From Candidatus Latescibacterota bacterium (GTDB lineage: Bacteria > Latescibacterota > UBA2968): a stretch of 11,985 bases of DNA. This document shows, piece by piece, positions 1-11,397 of this stretch; position 1 is the first letter of the stretch, and every line of letters begins with the position of its first letter. The DNA lies in NCBI GenBank assembly GCA_038279365.1, contig JAYODI010000124.1, forward strand, positions 1 to 11,985. The letters are read 5' to 3'. Made by a program: the position numbers and the translations under genes. The notes under the pieces are model-generated. The model did not search any database. It was not told the DNA's origin and saw only the letters and a list, made by a program, of their open reading frames with translations.

Positions 1-1983
1 TAAGTGTACCAAAGTTTCAGAGAAGTTTTCGGGTTTGAGTTTAACTCCCAAATGGTGATACAAGCTTGAGCGCATAATAAAAACAACGGGTCCGATTTCT
101 TCACGAAGGGATCGGTTGTGAAAATCTTGCACAACACCAATGACTTTGCCTGGGTTGCTGTTGAAGGTAAATGATTTGTCAATGGGGTCATCCCAACCGA
201 GTTGTTTGACGGCGGTTTCGTTTAAGATATAAGCGTTAAAGCGGTCTGATTCAATGTCGGGTGAGAAGTTGCGGCCTGCAACAAGGTTCAATCCAAATGT
301 TTCAAAGAAGTCTTCGTCCACTTCATTTGTGGGCATACGCCATGTGTTGGGCGGAAATCCTTCGGGTTGTACGGTGCGAATGAATTCTTCACCTTGACCC
401 AGCTTAAAACGAAAGGCAGTGGTTTTGAGAATGTTGGGGTGTTGCTCAAACACTTCTTTGGCCATGTTGTAGCGAAAGGACAAGCGGTTTCCGTCTCGCG
501 GTCTGGTAACGCGATCTGTAACGAAGATGGGTACGGTGATGATTTGTGAGCCATCAAAACCTAATTTTTTGTTGCGCATGAAAGCCAATTGCTCATAAAT
601 GACCGTGGTGCCAATGATGAGCATGACCGATGCGGCAAATTGAAAAACAACCAAGCCTTTTCTGAGCCAAGCACCTTTGGCTTGGTTGGTAGAGAGGCCT
701 TTCATCACGACAATGGGTTGAAATGCTGAGAGATAAAAAGCAGGATAACTGCCCGCTAACAGACCCGTGAACAGGGTGAGGGCAATGAGGTAGAGGGGCA
801 TGAGACCGTGGAAGATGTCGGTAAAGTCTAATAGCCTACCAGAGAAATTGTTGAATGTGGGTAATACGATGCGAATAAGGAGGACTGCAAGAAGGAGTGC
901 TAAAAAGGAGAGCAACATAGATTCGCTGATGAATTGTCGAATGAGGCTGGTGCGATTGGCACCGACCACTTTGCGAATGCCCACTTCACGGGCACGGTGA
1001 ACGGAGCGTGCGGTGGAGAGGTTCATAAAGTTGATGCAGGCGATGATGAGAATGAAGATGGCCACCGTGATGAGCAAATAGACGGTGGTAATGTCACTGG
1101 AAATGGGCATGCCATAATCAGGAAAGGCGATAAGTTGCATGCCATAGTCTTCATATTCATACAAGTGCATACGGGTGAGCGGTTGTAAGTGATAGTCGTT
1201 CATTTTGCGAATTTGTGCCCCCATGTAGCGCTCAATGGCATCGGGCAATTTGGCTGAGAGTGCGTTGACATCCGTACTTGGTGCAAGGCTGATGAATGTT
1301 TGAATGGGGCGCACGTCATATTCGGCATGCCACTGGTTCCACCATTCTTCGGGTTCACCGGGTTTGACGGTGGCGGTCATAATGTCAAATTGGATAGACG
1401 ATTGTGTTGGAAAGTCGCGCATCACGCCAGTGATACGATAGGGTTTGGATTCGTGGTAGTTGTGGTCTAAGGTCAGTGTTTGCCCAATGGGATTTGTGTT
1501 GCCAAAAAGTTTAATGGACATTGTTTCGCTGATGACAATCGTTTCGGGGGTGTCAAAAACTGTGGCGGGGTTGCCATAGAGAAGCGGAATGGTGAAGACG
1601 TCAAAGATAGCAGGATCAACAATGGCAACCCATTGGTAAAAGCCTTTGTTGGTGTTCTGAGTGTCATAAACCCAGAAGTTGCGTTCCCAAATGCGGGTGG
1701 CGTGTTCAATTTCTGGAAAATCTTGTAATAAGGAGGGAACTAAGCGCCCAGATGATCCAGGATGTATAGATGCGCGGTCGCCTTCCATACGGGTTTCTCT
1801 TACCACGCGATAAATGCGGTCTTTGTTGGTGTGGTATTGGTCATATTGCCATTCATTTTGTACATAAAGCATAATGAGCATACAACAGGCCAACCCAATT
1901 GCCAGACCTAAGATATTGATAAATGAATAAGCTTTGTGACGCAGGAGATTTCTTGTGGCGATGAGGAGATGGTTTTTAATCAT
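1..1983 (-). CDS. ABC transporter permease, MacB/FtsX family (3' end truncated by the window edge)
   Basis: Not in the ORF track because the stop is outside the window. Manual translation from ATG at 1983 (preceded by GGAGA) gives an open frame to base 1: MIKNHLLIATRNLLRHKAYSFINILGLAIG...IACINFMNLSTARSVHRAREVGIRKVVGA...GSYPAFYLSAFQP...WLRKGLVVFQF. It is collinear with the neighbouring permease. Confidence 0.93.
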   Translation of the reverse strand, partial: MIKNHLLIATRNLLRHKAYSFINILGLAIGLACCMLIMLYVQNEWQYDQYHTNKDRIYRVVRETRMEGDRASIHPGSSGRLVPSLLQDFPEIEHATRIWERNFWVYDTQNTNKGFYQWVAIVDPAIFDVFTIPLLYGNPATVFDTPETIVISETMSIKLFGNTNPIGQTLTLDHNYHESKPYRITGVMRDFPTQSSIQFDIMTATVKPGEPEEWWNQWHAEYDVRPIQTFISLAPSTDVNALSAKLPDAIERYMGAQIRKMNDYHLQPLTRMHLYEYEDYGMQLIAFPDYGMPISSDITTVYLLITVAIFILIIACINFMNLSTARSVHRAREVGIRKVVGANRTSLIRQFISESMLLSFLALLLAVLLIRIVLPTFNNFSGRLLDFTDIFHGLMPLYLIALTLFTGLLAGSYPAFYLSAFQPIVVMKGLSTNQAKGAWLRKGLVVFQFAASVMLIIGTTVIYEQLAFMRNKKLGFDGSQIITVPIFVTDRVTRPRDGNRLSFRYNMAKEVFEQHPNILKTTAFRFKLGQGEEFIRTVQPEGFPPNTWRMPTNEVDEDFFETFGLNLVAGRNFSPDIESDRFNAYILNETAVKQLGWDDPIDKSFTFNSNPGKVIGVVQDFHNRSLREEIGPVVFIMRSSLYHHLGVKLKPENFSETLVHL

Positions 1984-2010
1984 GAATTTCTCCAAACAAG
2001 GGATGGGAAT

Positions 2011-4452
2011 TTACTCATATCGAACGGCATCCACAGGGTTGGCCCGAGCCGCTTTCAAGGCATGATACCCTACGGTGATGGTGGCAATGAGCAGGGCGAG
2101 AAAGCCGCTTAGGGCAAATGGCCACACATTGAGGGTGAGACGATAGGTGAAATTTTGAAGCCAGTTGTTCATGATCCAATAGGCAAGCGGCCAGGCAATG
2201 ATGTTGGCCAATAATACGAGGTTGGCAAAGTCGCGCGAAAGCAAGCCCACAATGTTGGGTTCTGATGCCCCGAGCACTTTGCGAATGCCTATTTCTTTGG
2301 TGCGTCGCTCGGCGGTAAATGCCGCCAGACCAAAAAGCCCCAAACAGGCCACCAGCACAGCAAGTATTGCAAAGGCATTAAATGTGCGTTCGAGGCGCAT
2401 GAGTGCACGATAGGCGGTCATCATGCGGTCTTCTAAAAAGGAAAATTCAAATTCTCTTTCGGGTAAGTAGCGGTTCCACACCCGTTCAAAATGGGCAAGG
2501 GTTTCAGAGAAATTGTCCATTTTTACTTTGAGTGCAATGTGTCGGTAAAATCCTGGGCTCATATAAATGAGCACGGGTTCAATATTGCCATGCAGGGAGT
2601 GAAGGTGAAAATCTTTTACCACACCAATGACGGTGCATGTTTGACCGTCTTCACCCAAAAATTCAATGGTTTGCCCCAAAGGATTCTTCCAGCCAAGCTG
2701 TCGAACGGCTGTTTCATTTAGGATGACTGCTTCTGTGCGATCAGATGAAAGGTCTGCCGAAAAATTTCTGCCTGCAATCAGGTCAATGTCTAAAAGTGAA
2801 AGGAATCCTTCGTCCACTTCTTGCACAAACCATCTCATTTCATGCCCATCTGCCAGGCGAAAATTTCGTTTGATTGGGCCGCCTCCTGTTGATTTGTCGC
2901 GTCCAATAGAGAACCGATAAGATGCGACTTTTTCTACATTGGGATGATCTGAAAAGGCGCGTTTGACAGGCCCCACATCCCAAGATAAACGGTCTTCGGG
3001 CGCACCGCCATGGGTGTTCCAATGCCGAGAAAAAATGGGCAGTGTGACCACTTGCTCTCGGTTAAATCCCATATCTTTGTTTTGGATATAAGTGAGTTGG
3101 TTGTGTACCACAACGGTGCAAATGATAAGTAAAATGGACATGGCAAATTGAAACATGACCAGACCTTTTCGCAACCAAACCCCACTGTGGCCCATGTTCT
3201 TGATGCCTTTAAGGGTTTCTACGGGGCGAAATGCCGACAACACAAAGGCCGGATAACTGCCCGCCATCAAACTGACCAACAACCAAAGGACAGGCAACAT
3301 TAGTAAGACGTAAAGATTTTGAAAGACCCCAAATGTTAAATCGCGTTCGACAAAACCATTAAAAGTGGGCAGGGCCAAAAAGGCCAAAAAACATCCCAAC
3401 AGGAGTGATAAGGCGGCTTGAATGAGCGACTCACTTAAAAACTGCCCAAAAAGTTGTTCACGATAGGCTCCCACCACTTTGCGCAACCCCACTTCGCGTG
3501 CCCGCAAGGTTGCACTTGCTGTGGATAGGTTCACAAAGTTGATGCAGGCAATGAGTAAAATGAATACGCCAATGGCGATGAGCGATATCACTTGGTCAAT
3601 GCTGCCGTTTGAGCGCAATTTGTAATCGGTTGTAGAATAAAGGTGTGCTCTTAATAAGGGTTGCAGATGAAAGGTGTTGGTTTGGCGGTCTTTTTCATTG
3701 AGACGTGTTTGAGCCAGTGCATTGAGTTTTTGAATAAGGGCAGGCATATTGGCATCTGTTCGTAACTTGAGATAGGTTTCGGCATGATACCCCAAACCAA
3801 CGGGTTGCCACGTTTCCCATCCTGGGCGAATCCACGCATCGTTTTGGAGCGAGAGTAAAAATTCTGCGTAAAGAGTTGATTGTTGGGGGAAATCTTTGAT
3901 GACACCTGTAACGGTATAAAGACCGGCAAGGTTGATGCTTGCAAGTTGAATGGCTTTGCCCAAAGGATCTTCCTGACCAAATATTTGTTGGGCGGTGGAT
4001 TCGGTTAAGACAATGCTTCCTGGGTTTGTGAGTGCTGTTTTTGGGTCACCTTGTATGAGTGGCAATGTGAGTACGTCAAAAATGTGGTTGTCTGTCAGGT
4101 AGCCCCATCGGTTAAATTTTTTGTCTCCATAAGTCATTAATACACCATTGCTCCAAATGCGTGTTGCAGTTTCTACTTCGGGCAGCGTGCTGGCGGCATC
4201 GGGGCCCAACATGCCCGGATTGTTTAAGACGTAGGTTTGTGTGTCTCCTGTGTTGGCTTGTGTTGCCCGAATGACGCGATATATACGGTCGGCATACTGA
4301 TGGTGACGATCTACTTGAAATTCGTTGTGAACATAAAGCCCAATTAAAATGGCTGCGGCCATGCCAATGTCCAAGCCGACCATGTTGATGAGGGTATATA
4401 CTTTGTTGCGCAAAAGATTGCGAATGGCAATGGTGAAGTAGTTTTTGAACAA
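2011..4452 (-). CDS. ABC transporter permease, MacB/FtsX family, 813 aa, two periplasmic + FtsX repeats
   Basis: TTG start after an AGGTGA SD-like sequence. Family motifs: FKNYFTIAIRNLLRNK, IACINFVNLSTA..RAREVGLRKVVGA, GSYPAF, ACLGLFGLAAFTAERRTKEIGIRKVLGAS, C-terminal ANPVDAVRYE. Confidence 0.95.
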   Translation of the reverse strand: MFKNYFTIAIRNLLRNKVYTLINMVGLDIGMAAAILIGLYVHNEFQVDRHHQYADRIYRVIRATQANTGDTQTYVLNNPGMLGPDAASTLPEVETATRIWSNGVLMTYGDKKFNRWGYLTDNHIFDVLTLPLIQGDPKTALTNPGSIVLTESTAQQIFGQEDPLGKAIQLASINLAGLYTVTGVIKDFPQQSTLYAEFLLSLQNDAWIRPGWETWQPVGLGYHAETYLKLRTDANMPALIQKLNALAQTRLNEKDRQTNTFHLQPLLRAHLYSTTDYKLRSNGSIDQVISLIAIGVFILLIACINFVNLSTASATLRAREVGLRKVVGAYREQLFGQFLSESLIQAALSLLLGCFLAFLALPTFNGFVERDLTFGVFQNLYVLLMLPVLWLLVSLMAGSYPAFVLSAFRPVETLKGIKNMGHSGVWLRKGLVMFQFAMSILLIICTVVVHNQLTYIQNKDMGFNREQVVTLPIFSRHWNTHGGAPEDRLSWDVGPVKRAFSDHPNVEKVASYRFSIGRDKSTGGGPIKRNFRLADGHEMRWFVQEVDEGFLSLLDIDLIAGRNFSADLSSDRTEAVILNETAVRQLGWKNPLGQTIEFLGEDGQTCTVIGVVKDFHLHSLHGNIEPVLIYMSPGFYRHIALKVKMDNFSETLAHFERVWNRYLPEREFEFSFLEDRMMTAYRALMRLERTFNAFAILAVLVACLGLFGLAAFTAERRTKEIGIRKVLGASEPNIVGLLSRDFANLVLLANIIAWPLAYWIMNNWLQNFTYRLTLNVWPFALSGFLALLIATITVGYHALKAARANPVDAVRYE

Positions 4453-4612
4453 GATATCACCTGCATTGTTTTATGATGGAATGAGACAACCTTATAAACC
4501 TATTAATAATACAAACCTGTGCCTCAATAGGTTTTGAATATAAAAAGTCCTCTTATTAACATGAGAAGTGGGCTTTGGTTCTTGTGACTATTCTGTTGTC
4601 GGTTTCCAAAAA

Positions 4613-4653
4613 TAAAACGCCGTCCTTCTCAATGTGAGATGGACGGCGTTTTA
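4613..4653 (-). terminator. Intrinsic terminator closing the sigma-factor/RNA-array transcript (possibly bidirectional)
   Basis: Inverted repeat TAAAACGCCGTCC-t-TCTCA / TGAGA-t-GGACGGCGTTTTA. On the minus strand it runs into TTTTATTTTT. Confidence 0.8.
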
Positions 4654-4659
4654 CATTTA

Positions 4660-4964
4660 AACCCCGGGGGGAAGGATGTGCGCCTTCCCCCCGAGTGCTG
4701 CCAGCCTTTTGCGAAGCGCACAGAACTTCGTGTCCAGGTCTGACAGGTTATTTTTATCCCGAGAGGAAAGATGTACGCCTTCCTCTCGGGTGCCCAACTG
4801 CCCTTTGCGAAGTGTACAGAACTTCGTGTCCAGATCTGATGGGCATAAATTTTGTGTGTGACGGTCCAAACAGGAAGCGCATCACTTGCTGCTTGGAAAC
4901 AGTTAGCCTTTTGTGTGTTGGATGCGCAACACCTAACGCCAGGTCCAACTGTGTTTGACCGCCA
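4660..4964 (-). ncRNA. Putative tandem array of three structured RNA units with kissing loops (4859-4964, 4753-4849, 4660-4749); family not recognised
   Basis: Two units are recognisable direct repeats (period 95-96 bp). The third has diverged in sequence but keeps the same fold and core. Compensatory changes occur in stems and in loop-loop pairs, and most stem mismatches become G-U on the minus strand. Confidence 0.7.
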
Positions 4965-4985
4965 TCAATTTATTGAGAAAGTGAA

Positions 4986-6089
4986 TTATGTCACTTCTCT
5001 TTTTGCTTTTAGAATGGCCAGTAACAAACGTTGAAAGCCACTTTTGAGTTTGGGGTCGGTTTCACGTTCTAAGGCTTGGGCCACTTTTTCAGGTGAAAAA
5101 CAGGTTAGATATTTTTTGACAGGCCAAACGTTGGTGAAATGTCGTCTGACTGTTTTACTGGAGTCAAACATGAGTTCAACAATGAGTGGCATAAATTCTT
5201 CTTGTTTGCGTTGTTCACTCACGTTGAGTTTAAGCAACTCGCGCATGGTGTATTTTCGAACTTTTTTATTTGGGTCATAGAGTGCTTTTTTGAGCAAGTT
5301 CACAACGTCTTCGGTTGGCAAGTCATTGTGAACATAACTGACCACGGCGCGGCGCGTTTGCCAATGAGGTTGTTGAAAGGCTTTTTGGAATCCTGAAATT
5401 CCCCGTGATCCAATTTGTTTTATTTTTTGGCGAATATCGCGTTGAAACATGTTGCTTCGGTTGGGATAGGCATTGAGCAGTTCAAAAACTTTTTCAGTAA
5501 AGTTTTCGCCGGGTGCGCCTTCTTTTAAAACGTCTTCGACCATGTGTATCATATCCTCTTTGAGTCGATTGCGGGCCTCATAAAGGCGGCGTTTGATGGT
5601 GCCAACGGGCACTTCTTGAATGTGCGCCACTTCTTGTTGTGAGTATCCGCTGATGTAATATAAGGTGACGGTTTCACGCTGTGTTTTGCTCAAGCGACCA
5701 ATGGCCGTTAAAACTTGTTCGCGCAATTCGGCCTGTTCTAAGTCGCTGTGTGGATTGAGCGATGATTCAGGTTCTTCAATGCTGTCGATGGTGACTGACC
5801 GTGCTTCGCGTTTGAGGTAATTGATGCAGCGGTGAATGGTGATGGAGCGCAACCACGCACCCAAACGGTTGGGGTCTTTTAAGTCGGCCAGCCGGTCAAA
5901 GGCTTCGACGAATGATGACTGTGTGAGGTCTTCGGCATCGTGAAAATTGCGCAGACGTGAGAGCGCCACACCAAAGACGGCATCTTTGTAGCGTTCAATG
6001 ATGGGGCCAAAAGCCTGTGGCCCGCCAGAGAGTGCCATATTCACAAGCGTTGTGTTATCTGGTGATGAGGATGTTTCCAACGCCTTCAT
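4986..6089 (-). CDS. ECF-type RNA polymerase sigma factor with a C-terminal HEAT-repeat-like extension (about 367 aa)
   Basis: Region 2: FHDAEDLTQSSFVEAF...LGAWLRSITIHRCINYLK. Region 4: LSKTQRETVTLYYISGYSQQEVA...PVGTIKRRLYEARNRLK. The C-terminal ~180 aa has HEAT-like units (FQQPHWQTRRAVV; ALYDPNKKVRK; LMFDSSKTVRR; ALERETDPKLK). ATG 6089 is preferred to TTG 6101, which lies inside the promoter motif. Confidence 0.9.
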   Translation of the reverse strand: MKALETSSSPDNTTLVNMALSGGPQAFGPIIERYKDAVFGVALSRLRNFHDAEDLTQSSFVEAFDRLADLKDPNRLGAWLRSITIHRCINYLKREARSVTIDSIEEPESSLNPHSDLEQAELREQVLTAIGRLSKTQRETVTLYYISGYSQQEVAHIQEVPVGTIKRRLYEARNRLKEDMIHMVEDVLKEGAPGENFTEKVFELLNAYPNRSNMFQRDIRQKIKQIGSRGISGFQKAFQQPHWQTRRAVVSYVHNDLPTEDVVNLLKKALYDPNKKVRKYTMRELLKLNVSEQRKQEEFMPLIVELMFDSSKTVRRHFTNVWPVKKYLTCFSPEKVAQALERETDPKLKSGFQRLLLAILKAKREVT

Positions 6090-6093
6090 AGGT

Positions 6094-6124
6094 AAAGTCA
6101 AATGGATGCCTCAAAAGGTTCGGT
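6094..6124 (-). promoter_or_regulatory. ECF-type promoter, copy 1 (probable autoregulatory promoter, near-leaderless sigma mRNA)
   Basis: Minus strand ACCGAACCTTTTG-N8-ATTTGACTTT-N4-ATG. The GAAC -35 box is typical of ECF promoters. The motif is repeated exactly 193 bp upstream. Confidence 0.7.
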
Positions 6125-8951: not shown

Positions 8952-9036
8952 TAGGGGCGCGGTCCCCGCGCCCATGTTTGGATACGCGCCCATTTATGGT
9001 TCCCTGCGCCCATGTTTGAATCCGCGCCCATTTATG
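8951..9036 (+). repeat. GTAG-family REP-like palindrome plus 38-bp tandem duplication
   Basis: GTAG-GGGCGCGG-TCC-CCGCGCCC at 8951-8973. Segments 8961-8998 and 8999-9036 match at 34/38 positions and contain four YGCGCCCAT copies. Confidence 0.75.
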
Positions 9037-9090
9037 ATTTTTTCACCCATCCACCATCGGTTCGAGTTTGCATGTGGAAAGAAGGTTTTG

Positions 9091-11397
9091 ATGCGACATT
9101 TTTATGCGATTATTTTGTGTCTTGGGTTTGTGATGGGTGAGGGGGATGCCCAAGAGATGAGTGTGTTAGAGGGTGTCATCTTGGGCAAGTCTGCACCACT
9201 TTCGGGTGCCAATGTGTCGGTTGTTGTGGGCAATGATACACTCAGTGCGGTGACCAATGATGTGGGATTTTATCGCATTGCGCACATCCAAGCTGGCACA
9301 CATCGGCTTGAGGCATCTCATGTGGCCTATCAAAAGGCGGTTGAAAATGCGTTTGTGTTTGGCGCTGGGCAAACACATCGGTGGGATGTGACGTTGGTGA
9401 GCCGCGAGTTGTCGCTGGATGAGATTGTGGTGAATCCCGGCAGTTTTTCGGTGATGGAAGATGACCCTGTGGCACCGCGTGGGTTGTCTCGGGCTGAGAT
9501 TAAGGCCATTCCTGCGGTGACGGATGACATTTTTCGCACGGTAGAACGGTTGCCGGGTGTGTCAGGTGGCGATTTTTTGGCGCGGTTTACGGTGCGCGGT
9601 GGTGATTATGATCAGGTGCTGGTGTCGTTAGATGGGTTGGAGTTGTTTGAGCCGTTTCACTTAAAAGATTTGGGTGGCGGTGTGTTGAGCATTATTGATG
9701 CCGAGGTGGTGGGTGGGTTGGATATGATGACGGGTGGGTTTTCGGCTGATTTTGGCAATCGACAAAGTGCGGTGTTGCAAATGCGCAGTCGCCGCCCAGA
9801 AGAGGGCATGCGCGCCTCGTTTAGTGCGGGCATTATGAATGCGCGGATTTTGGCCGATGGGGCCAATGAAAAATGGGGTTTTTTGGTGTCGGCACGGCGT
9901 GGGTATGCAGACATTATGGTGGAGAAGATTGACCCCGAGCGCGATTTTAACCCCGAGTATTACGATATCTTTGGAAAGGTGACCTACAATGGGGGCAACC
10001 ATCAGCTTGGCGCACAGGTGTTGTGGGCCTCAGACAGCGGTGGTTTTACGCAGGTCGATGGTGACCATTTGGAAAGTACCTATGGCAATGGTTATACCTG
10101 GTTGACTTGGGATGCGATTATTGGCTCGGGTTTGGTGGTGCGTACCTTGCCGTATTATGGGCGCATTACCAGTGACCGTGAAGCCACATTGATCAATGCC
10201 GAAGACAGTGCCGATGAGTTGATTGATGACATTCGCACCACGAGTTTGTATGGCATTAAGTCAGATGCCAAATGGCAGTGGCACGAAAAACATATTACGC
10301 GGTTTGGCGGTGAGCTTCGATGGCTCAAGAGTGATTACGATTATCGCAAACAAGAAAGTCGGTTGACCGATTATGTGGGGGCTGGACGTTATTTTGGTGT
10401 AACGTATGATGAGGTATCGGTAGATGTGACGCCCGAAGGGTGGCAAAACAGTTTTTATGTGAGTCATAAGTGGCGGTTGCACAATAAGCTTACGGCAGAT
10501 ATCGGTGGGCGTTTTGATCGACAGACGTATACGAATGATGAAGTGTGGAGCCCACGTGCGGGGGTGGCGTTGGTCTTGGATGATAAGACGATGCTACGCA
10601 CGGCTTGGGGGCGTTATTCTCAGTCGCAACACATTGGCGCATTGGATGTTCACAATGGCGTACAAACGTTTCAACCCGCTGCGCGGGCTACGCATTATGT
10701 GATGGGTTTGGAACGGTTGATGGGTAAGAATATTTTGGCACGTGTCGAAGCCTATCACAAAGATTATGATCAGATGTGGTCGCGTTATGAAAACCTCAAC
10801 CAAAACCATACCACAGATCCGTTGCCCGATGTGGTAGACGGTTGGACTGAGGTTTTTCCTGTAAAGGGAACGGCGCGTGGTATTGAGTTTTATGTAAAGC
10901 GCGATACGGGGTTGGGGCTCAATTGGTGGGCCACCTATGCGCTTACTTCTACGCGAGAGACCTTTGCACCAGGTGTGGGTGATCCGCAATTTCAAGGGCA
11001 AACATTTCCACGTGCATTTGATCAGGCACATTCGGTTTCGTTTGATCTGATCTATCGCCCAGTGTCCGATTGGTTTGTGGGGGCGGCCTGGCAGTTTCGT
11101 TCGGGTTGGCCCCATACGCCTTTGGAGTTAGAAGACCGGCCCGATGGGTCACAACGGTTTGTGTTTGGCGATTTTTATTCGGCAACATATCCCATTTATC
11201 ATCGGTTGGATGTGAAGGTGACACATTGGGTCGAATACGATTCGTGGAAGTTGGTGTTTGGGTTGGGCATGAGCAATATCTATGGGCGAACGAATGTGCG
11301 GCATTATAGCTATTTTATTCAAGATGGTCGGATGCGGCGTTTGATTGAGGGGTGGTTACCGGCGTTGCCATTTGCGAGTGTGAGTGCGGAATTTTGA
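9091..11397 (+). CDS. TonB-dependent receptor with N-terminal carboxypeptidase-regulatory-like domain (768 aa)
   Basis: Signal peptide MRHFYAIILCLGFVMGEGDA, N-domain PLSGANV...TNDVGFYRI, LDEIVV TonB-box-like motif, plug DIFRTVERLPGV..VRGG..GGFSADFGNR, barrel WSPRAG and YHRLDVK, terminal Phe. The track start at 8974 runs through the REP repeats and is rejected. Confidence 0.92.
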   Translation: MRHFYAIILCLGFVMGEGDAQEMSVLEGVILGKSAPLSGANVSVVVGNDTLSAVTNDVGFYRIAHIQAGTHRLEASHVAYQKAVENAFVFGAGQTHRWDVTLVSRELSLDEIVVNPGSFSVMEDDPVAPRGLSRAEIKAIPAVTDDIFRTVERLPGVSGGDFLARFTVRGGDYDQVLVSLDGLELFEPFHLKDLGGGVLSIIDAEVVGGLDMMTGGFSADFGNRQSAVLQMRSRRPEEGMRASFSAGIMNARILADGANEKWGFLVSARRGYADIMVEKIDPERDFNPEYYDIFGKVTYNGGNHQLGAQVLWASDSGGFTQVDGDHLESTYGNGYTWLTWDAIIGSGLVVRTLPYYGRITSDREATLINAEDSADELIDDIRTTSLYGIKSDAKWQWHEKHITRFGGELRWLKSDYDYRKQESRLTDYVGAGRYFGVTYDEVSVDVTPEGWQNSFYVSHKWRLHNKLTADIGGRFDRQTYTNDEVWSPRAGVALVLDDKTMLRTAWGRYSQSQHIGALDVHNGVQTFQPAARATHYVMGLERLMGKNILARVEAYHKDYDQMWSRYENLNQNHTTDPLPDVVDGWTEVFPVKGTARGIEFYVKRDTGLGLNWWATYALTSTRETFAPGVGDPQFQGQTFPRAFDQAHSVSFDLIYRPVSDWFVGAAWQFRSGWPHTPLELEDRPDGSQRFVFGDFYSATYPIYHRLDVKVTHWVEYDSWKLVFGLGMSNIYGRTNVRHYSYFIQDGRMRRLIEGWLPALPFASVSAEF

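Follow-up and report, generated by a model that had tools for sequence, protein, structure and literature searches.

Sigma factors of the extracytoplasmic function (ECF) type form a main route of signal transduction in bacteria and are usually held by protein anti-sigma factors, by fused domains or by phosphorylation. Anti-sigma genes lie directly downstream of the autoregulated ECF sigma gene and are co-transcribed with it. Several structured RNAs offer further points of comparison: 6S RNA, one long hairpin with a central bubble; small RNAs (sRNAs) derived from 3′ untranslated regions (3′ UTRs) or dependent on sigma-E, such as MicL and CpxQ; the ToxI repeats of type III toxin-antitoxin systems, which are short, nearly identical and precede the toxin gene; and the purine riboswitch aptamer. 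Described here is a stretch of 11,985 nt from a Candidatus Latescibacterota bacterium (contig JAYODI010000124.1, assembly GCA_038279365.1; hereafter the window), in which the gene for an ECF sigma factor that ends in a domain of HEAT repeats (sigma-HEAT) is followed by copies of a conserved structured RNA of about 115 nt. On balance this RNA is probably an RNA component of the sigma-HEAT module, with a role of its own.

Like an anti-sigma gene, the sigma-HEAT RNA is positioned directly downstream of an apparently autoregulated ECF sigma gene, with which it would be co-transcribed. An anti-sigma factor is a protein, however, whereas the sigma-HEAT system has a non-coding RNA in that place; the sigma factor also possesses an additional C-terminal domain, and the role of regulator may fall to this domain instead. 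The likeness to 6S RNA, as an RNA dedicated to sigma control, is an analogy of function only, binding being putative here; 6S RNA acts on the housekeeping holoenzyme and its gene does not follow that of a sigma factor, and the sigma-HEAT RNA folds differently and matched no 6S family in Rfam. Rfam 15 at gathering score gave no matches on the window or on 10 homologous loci, covering AT-rich and GC-rich versions, which agrees with the original prediction, where no known riboswitch or ribozyme could be matched. With E allowed up to 10, nine weak matches appeared on the window (best 25.7 bits against a cut-off of 70), eight of them on the terminator hairpin behind the array (4585-4669) and the ninth, Pseudomon-1 at 14 bits, on the terminator plus arm 2 of the last unit. 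ARAGORN found no tRNA or tmRNA genes in the window, and no description of such an RNA was found in the literature among the titles and abstract openings listed. Neither the family nor its pairing with an ECF sigma gene is known; the type of fold, a three-way junction with kissing arms, has precedents in other RNAs.

On the minus strand, positions 4964-4660 consist of three units of about 90 nt, beginning 21 bases downstream of the sigma-HEAT stop codon (Table 1). Repeat units had been predicted here from the letters, and all the sequences then quoted are present. Every unit comprises a long bulged hairpin and a GC-rich hairpin with mutually complementary loops, the pairing sequence being specific to the unit: CGCAUC/GAUGCG in unit A, UGUAC/GUACA in B and UGUGC/GCACA in C. 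Units B and C differ by one compensatory change within the loop-loop pairing, and A differs from both at most positions; Tandem Repeats Finder reported no repeats in the window. The minimum free energy fold of 4975-4600 recovered all the described stems at -162 kcal/mol, against -109.4 ± 5.8 kcal/mol for 100 shuffled versions, none of which did as well (z -9.1), while the opposite strand folded more weakly (z -5.9). The covariance-model search proposed with the prediction bore fruit: a model made from units B and C alone (R1) detected unit A at 22.8 bits (E 0.003), and later models found homologues in relatives.

In the window the unit is multiplied to three, with A complete and B and C being duplicates that lack the closing stem P0. 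The three-way junction claimed for all units therefore holds for A only; the closing stems proposed for B (UUUAU/AUAAA) and for C are weak and not conserved. Unit B gave a local match of 33.6 bits to the final model (R3), restricted to model positions 16-103, and its first stem has two mismatches, U-U and A-A. Unit C stands as a unit near its predicted bounds (4749-4660), its first stem beginning at 4746 rather than 4749. Tandem structured units followed by a terminator also characterize ToxI-type arrays, but A and B/C are widely different, most genomes have a single unit and no toxin gene follows. A type III antitoxin array was rejected, as the units are not near-identical and the next genes encode MacB_PCD/FtsX permeases.

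In its full form the RNA is a three-way junction of about 115 nt, built of P0, the junction strand UCAAA, an arm 1 with a bulged A, an arm 2 and kissing loops. The 5′ strand of P0, GGCGG, is followed by UCAAA, and its 3′ strand, CCGCC, comes immediately after the second hairpin; P0 starts a few bases from the stop codon in at least eight loci. Sequence is conserved across the homologues in P0, in UCAAA, and in the elements CGG-A-CC(C/U)-GG and AAGG-CUGG. P0 is mostly conserved as sequence, with variants that keep the pairing: GACGG/CCGUC (G121, G114), GAUGG/CCAUC (G121:C16) and GGUGGCG/CGCCACC (G163). The internal-loop core (GGACA/CAAA), first taken as the conserved sequence of the RNA, is constant in the window only; G140 has a continuous helix in its place.

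That the fold is under selection had been proposed from the window alone, and homologues from 13 other genomes add strong covariation. In an alignment of 16 units fitted to the model, a procedure that favours structure, 91.8% of 473 cells were paired and 26 of 31 pairs had double-sided changes. None of 500 shuffles of this alignment reached any of five measures, and sliding the partners by 1-3 columns left 35-50% paired. The unfitted alignment was 80% paired, with double changes in 23 of 36 pairs and P0 paired in 85.7%. RNAalifold on a sequence-only MAFFT alignment of 14 units returned P0, the bulged arm 1 and arm 2, with 24 pairs, 12 of them compensatory. Cells with G-U exceeded those with A-C by 52 to 14 (of 473) in the fitted and 44 to 4 (of 336) in the unfitted alignment, which places the RNA on the strand of the sigma gene, the minus strand of the window, as had been surmised.

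Loops chosen automatically from the arm folds shared 5-8 contiguous complementary bases in 19 of 22 units. Among the remaining three, G055 was mis-picked (by eye GUGCGCU/AGCGUAC), and G007:C132 and G125 were without a clear loop match. At least ten distinct loop pairs occur, for example GUGUGC/GCACAC, GGGUGUCC/GGACACCC, GUGCC/GGCAC, GUGUC/GACAC, CUCC/GGAG and GCAUC/GAUGC. When the second loops were re-dealt among units, 0 of 5000 permutations reached the observed total, confirming that the two loops are complementary and change together. Since the hairpin stems of unit A are unrelated, the loop match is not a by-product of inverted duplication.

The link of the RNA to its gene emerged from searches in related genomes. 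BLAST of the array against its own genome and 40 relatives returned only itself and one G007 unit, the first relative, situated at the end of a short contig and 87% identical to unit C. An exact pattern derived from B and C, run over genome and metagenome contigs, found only the organism's own contig (L020), the G007 contig (L019) and one chance match, a Roseibium record with poor pairing (19.9 bits). A model of four sequences (R2) located units in three more genomes of the class, all just behind a HEAT-repeat open reading frame (ORF) or a full sigma-HEAT gene. By protein search the HEAT part was found in 12 of 132 genomes of the class, and across the phylum 17 of 168 genomes had HEAT-domain matches, which lie at 19 places. 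With the models run over these places without filters, a clear RNA, scoring 43-113 bits with R3, was present at 14 (G000, G140, G055, G054, G056:C524, G125, G157, G114, G077, two in G163, G121:C61, G162 and G068). In every case it lies downstream of the gene on the coding strand, and it starts about 0-40 nt after the stop codon. Weak matches were obtained at G011 (30.9 bits) and at G069 (24.9 bits, after an 84-aa gene remnant). Conversely, an R3 scan of 151 of the 168 genomes matched 13, of which 12 had a HEAT-domain match and the 13th, G007, a sigma fragment of the family. The predicted array downstream of a sigma gene is thus real in the window but is not the general form, 12 of the 14 clear places having a single unit; the strict link to sigma-HEAT, the shared promoter and the loci with promoter and RNA but no ORF, described below, go beyond the original prediction.

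Assemblies were seen to break within the GC-rich arm-2 hairpin (L010 and L019 at position 1, L020 at position 1-10, L037 at its end), probably because the palindrome confuses the assembler, and units may therefore be under-counted in fragmented genomes. In L041 (G056:C524, 643-741) the spacer of two tandem units contains the truncated start of a third (AGCGGUCAAGGCAG...), which points to tandem duplication with decay in a GC-rich relative as well.

Metagenomes of estuary, salt-marsh and marine origin, sampled in 13 studies, contain the window stretch in their DNA runs. A single study supplies two metatranscriptome runs (X19, X20), whose assembled contigs cover unit C at 4661-4756 with one difference. 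One contig extends over C and part of B (4661-4796), and unit C is covered with 1 and 4 differences in the two libraries. Part of unit A is covered at 4894-4932, with a loose end that reads as a canonical P0 start, and the sigma ORF at 5928-6023 only, with eight differences. Such contigs give no strand, ends or level, and where X19 and X20 leave parts of the stretch uncovered, silence does not follow. The flanks of the RNA-library contigs differ from the window, so that they derive from a relative. In one such contig a unit 99% identical to unit C has an entirely different downstream side, a P0-less unit in another context in a close relative.

A selfish or neutral repeat without function, of the REP (repetitive extragenic palindrome) or MITE (miniature inverted-repeat transposable element) kind or left over from tandem duplication, would account for the tandem and truncated copies (B and C in the window, the third copy in G056), for contigs that often end inside arm 2 and for unit C recurring between other flanks in the RNA-library contig. 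The many copies expected of a REP or MITE are absent: BLAST and three models find only this one locus in the organism's own 6.0-Mb genome, and other genomes have at most three RNA loci each. The position and strand behind one gene family are fixed in several classes of the phylum, and compensatory changes keep the fold while GC content ranges from 50% to 77%. This explanation is regarded as extremely improbable.

The sigma-HEAT protein belongs with the ECF sigma factors that carry a fused domain at the C-terminus, having regions 2 and 4, a HEAT extension and no adjacent anti-sigma gene. Pfam places Sigma70_r2 at residues 34-101, Sigma70_r4_2 at 127-180 and HEAT/HEAT_2/Cnd1 at 242-321, and NCBIfam assigns the protein to sigma70-ECF (3e-29). 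The 32 flanking ORFs of 10 loci included none with an anti-sigma domain. The nearest ESM Atlas cluster (score 0.99) has 55 members, most commonly from Candidatus Latescibacterota. The sequence of the HEAT part matched no solved structure better than E 0.37, and the main text of the ECF reclassification paper (PMC7826278) contains no whole-word occurrence of HEAT.

Upstream of sigma-HEAT a motif of ECF promoter type is conserved, (C/G)(G/C)AACC(T)TTT, about 12 nt, (T/C)(C/T)GAC(A)T. Its core (GAACC or CAACC, about 17 nt, CGAC or TGAC) was found by pattern in 10 of 15 loci, and in four further loci GTC replaces GAC, as seen by eye; loci with the motif include L039, L040, L045, L046, L051 and L053-L056. 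The motif ends about 7 nt before the start codon, which suggests that the sigma-HEAT mRNA may be leaderless. In the window it is the ATG at 6089 that follows the motif by 7 nt, and this ATG is likely to be the true start. A second motif copy with a short frame lies further upstream and resembles what is left of a gene start after duplication; the pattern search reported the motif in the window at -214 and -21. The RNA core CCGGACC resembles the -35 motif CCGAACC, probably by coincidence, as visual comparison revealed no co-variation of the two across genomes.

Table 1. Positions of the features of the window, with minus-strand features read in the direction of transcription.
Feature	Position	Strand	Details
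Sigma-HEAT gene, ECF sigma factor with C-terminal HEAT-repeat domain	6101-4986	minus	371 aa from TTG at 6101
ECF-type promoter motif of sigma-HEAT	6123-6094	minus	CCGAACC 6123-6117, 17-nt spacer, TGAC 6100-6097
Second promoter-motif copy	6316-6287	minus	CCGAACC 6316-6310, TTGAC 6294-6290; ATG 6282, then 16-codon frame
Unit A, complete RNA form	4964-4859	minus	sequence, fold and R3 match (4852-4969, 75.7 bits)
Unit A, closing stem P0	4964-4958 / 4865-4859	minus	UGGCGGU / ACCGUCA
Unit A, junction		minus	CAAAC
Unit A, arm 1		minus	8-bp stem, bulged A, CCU/AGG, internal loop, 6-bp hairpin, loop CGCAUC 4926-4921
Unit A, arm 2		minus	hairpin, loop GAUGCG 4883-4878, pairs with loop 1
Unit B, duplicate without closing stem	4846-4756 (model match)	minus	loops UGUAC 4818-4814 and GUACA 4776-4772
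Unit C, duplicate without closing stem	4750-4661 (model match)	minus	loops UGUGC 4722-4718 and GCACA 4681-4677
Intrinsic terminator after the array	4652-4608	minus	stem AAAACGCCGUCC / GGACGGCGUUUU, then UUUUAUUUUU (U-run); seen in the fold
Two consecutive MacB_PCD/FtsX permease genes	within 1-4452	minus	downstream of array and terminator; Pfam
TonB-dependent receptor gene with CarboxypepD_reg domain	8974-11397	plus	further upstream, other strand

The neighbours of the gene and RNA pair vary by genome and are often convergent, with glycerate-kinase-like, GNAT, PD40, DegT aminotransferase, SDR and Dak genes elsewhere and MacB in the window, where an FAD-dependent oxidoreductase gene is divergent upstream of sigma-HEAT. 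Because the flanking genes are unrelated or convergent and no downstream gene is shared, a leader or riboswitch for a downstream gene is ruled out, including one for the MacB-type permeases, as the downstream genes differ in every genome.

The same neighbours bear on the notion of a ligand-sensing aptamer or self-cleaving ribozyme at the 3′ end of the gene, since unrelated and often convergent genes leave such an element nothing to switch. The compact junction with kissing arms does recall purine riboswitches and natural hammerheads, and the conserved nucleotides cluster at the junction and internal loop. With the purine aptamer (RF00167) the RNA shares the closing stem, the two side-by-side arms and Watson-Crick loop-loop pairing. 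The purine aptamer, however, has three conserved junction strands and sits in a 5′ leader, whereas the sigma-HEAT RNA has one such strand (UCAAA) and follows the gene; its arm 1 is much longer and kinked by the bulged A and internal loop, its loops vary freely if pairing is kept, and no model match was obtained. A purine-riboswitch-like aptamer was rejected on account of the single junction strand, the position and the downstream genes. The hammerhead core consensus is CUGANGA...GAAA around the three-way junction; here CUGGACA...CAAA lies within arm 1, not at the junction, and no Rfam hammerhead matched, so that a hammerhead was likewise rejected. As the internal loop also gives way to a continuous helix in G140 and no Rfam family matches, an aptamer or ribozyme of any kind is considered very unlikely.

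The RNA is also kept without the gene. At G007:C132 (L067, 1465-1620) the promoter motif is followed after 7 nt by P0 of a unit and by a U-run, with no ORF, and the locus adjoins an FAD-dependent oxidoreductase gene as in the window; this is the window locus with the ORF missing. At G121:C16 (L072, 1440-1623) a slightly degenerate promoter and an ATG are homologous to those of the intact sigma-HEAT of the same genome, and 45 nt past this remnant there is a unit in good form (54.6 bits, 7-bp kiss). At G056:C68 the sequence upstream of the unit shows no similarity to sigma-HEAT. In G077 (L044, G077:C105) sigma-HEAT is broken by an internal deletion and the RNA is intact, and at G007:C559 homology to sigma-HEAT extends to about residue 110 and breaks off five bases ahead of a unit that lacks P0. 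The RNA is degenerate behind the frameshifted gene of G122 (L048, G122:C37) and partial behind the 84-aa stump in G069 (L049, G069:C1). That the ORF has been lost repeatedly while the RNA stayed in place speaks for an importance of the RNA outside its own mRNA.

Loci with promoter and RNA only would also suit a trans-acting base-pairing sRNA of the sigma-HEAT regulon, either released from the 3′ UTR or transcribed by itself, and repressing target mRNAs as sigma-E-dependent sRNAs do, and so would the dependence on an ECF-type promoter that the motif suggests. Origin at an mRNA 3′ end or from an ECF-type promoter, within a stress sigma regulon, is what the RNA would have in common with such sRNAs. 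Those sRNAs combine a simple terminator hairpin with a single-stranded seed that is conserved, whereas the sigma-HEAT RNA is a closed tertiary fold with no evident seed: both loops are variable and used in the internal kiss, and the sole conserved unpaired stretch is the 5-nt junction UCAAA. An sRNA of this type is quite unlikely.

The proposal favoured here is a self-contained module of ECF-type promoter, sigma-HEAT gene and RNA. The promoter of the sigma factor itself would drive the RNA, either as the 3′ end of the sigma-HEAT mRNA or, where the ORF is deleted, as a stand-alone small RNA starting at P0. It sits where ECF operons usually carry the anti-sigma gene and would bind a protein, with the basic HEAT domain as the prime candidate, feeding back on sigma activity. 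Extra units would be extra binding sites, and either these, as in the window, or ORF-less promoter-RNA loci, as in G007 and G121, may tune the feedback. More specifically, and as a tentative suggestion, the RNA may bind the HEAT domain and switch the sigma factor off or on in place of a protein anti-sigma factor. The isoelectric point (pI) of the last 185 residues is 8.1-9.8 in all but one of 12 proteins, compared with 4.8-8.8 in the sigma part, by a crude measure that falls on another region in four longer or shorter proteins (G121, G068, G163b and G162).

The imprecision of this pI comparison is one of several points that weigh against the proposal. Binding of the RNA to the sigma factor, or an effect on it, is putative. 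No RNA was found at three of the 19 sigma-HEAT places (G138, G056:C24 and G122); the G138 contig stops 100 nt past the gene, and the G122 gene is broken, R2 giving 17 bits there. G007 has two RNA loci and no HEAT-domain match in a genome 89% complete. Related genomes are not independent, so that the counts given above describe a pattern rather than a statistical test and overstate the support. Slow decay of dead loci is a possible alternative account of the RNA loci without an ORF. The RNA-library contigs are a weak hint of transcription, DNA carry-over being possible. Lastly, a U-run follows P0 in L040, L053, L039 and L067, as in an intrinsic terminator, and a role as terminator or stabiliser alone could explain the position of the RNA.

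This last point belongs to the main rival explanation, a cis-acting 3′-end element whose junction ends transcription and/or shields the sigma-HEAT mRNA from 3′-to-5′ exonucleases, with no role of its own. The start of the RNA right after the stop codon fits such an element, as does the resemblance of arm 2 to ordinary terminator hairpins: weak model matches in G015 and G043 (31 and 27 bits) were rejected as being just such hairpins between convergent genes (L015, G015:C1 1501-1571; L016, G043), with the stem-loop GGUGGAAG-ACACACA-UCUUCCACC. For this purpose a plain hairpin would suffice, yet the tertiary loop contact and the bulged core are kept by compensatory change. The U-run is absent after P0 in about 10 of 15 homologues and after the units of the window, where the array has a separate canonical terminator, and RNA and promoter persist together at loci that have lost the ORF. 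A purely cis-acting element is therefore considered unlikely, and an RNA with its own role in the sigma-HEAT module is preferred.

The terminator behind the array was not listed by a simple terminator scan, perhaps owing to an internal stem mismatch. An antiterminator pairing between arm 2 and this terminator (7 of 8 bases pairable by eye) was considered and is unlikely, since arm 2, a GC hairpin of 13 bp, folds first. A match to a sigma-70-like promoter (GTGACA, 16 nt, TAAATT; 9/12) lies at 4994-4967 on the minus strand, where the sigma ORF ends and a short way upstream of unit A; it may mean nothing, the scan having returned 6 sites against a chance expectation of 2.7.

All RNA-bearing sigma-HEAT loci lie in one small phylum with no cultured members, probably Latescibacterota, spread over several of its classes. 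Sigma-HEAT has an uncharacterised HEAT domain and no anti-sigma gene, and in the place of the latter stands a complex RNA whose fold is kept even after deletion of the ORF. Should its role be confined to shaping the mRNA's 3′ end, the RNA would still be a new family whose tertiary contact is well supported, and its length of about 115 nt suits structural work. If the RNA acts on the sigma factor, it would represent a new way of controlling transcription initiation and would provide the first function for the HEAT extension.

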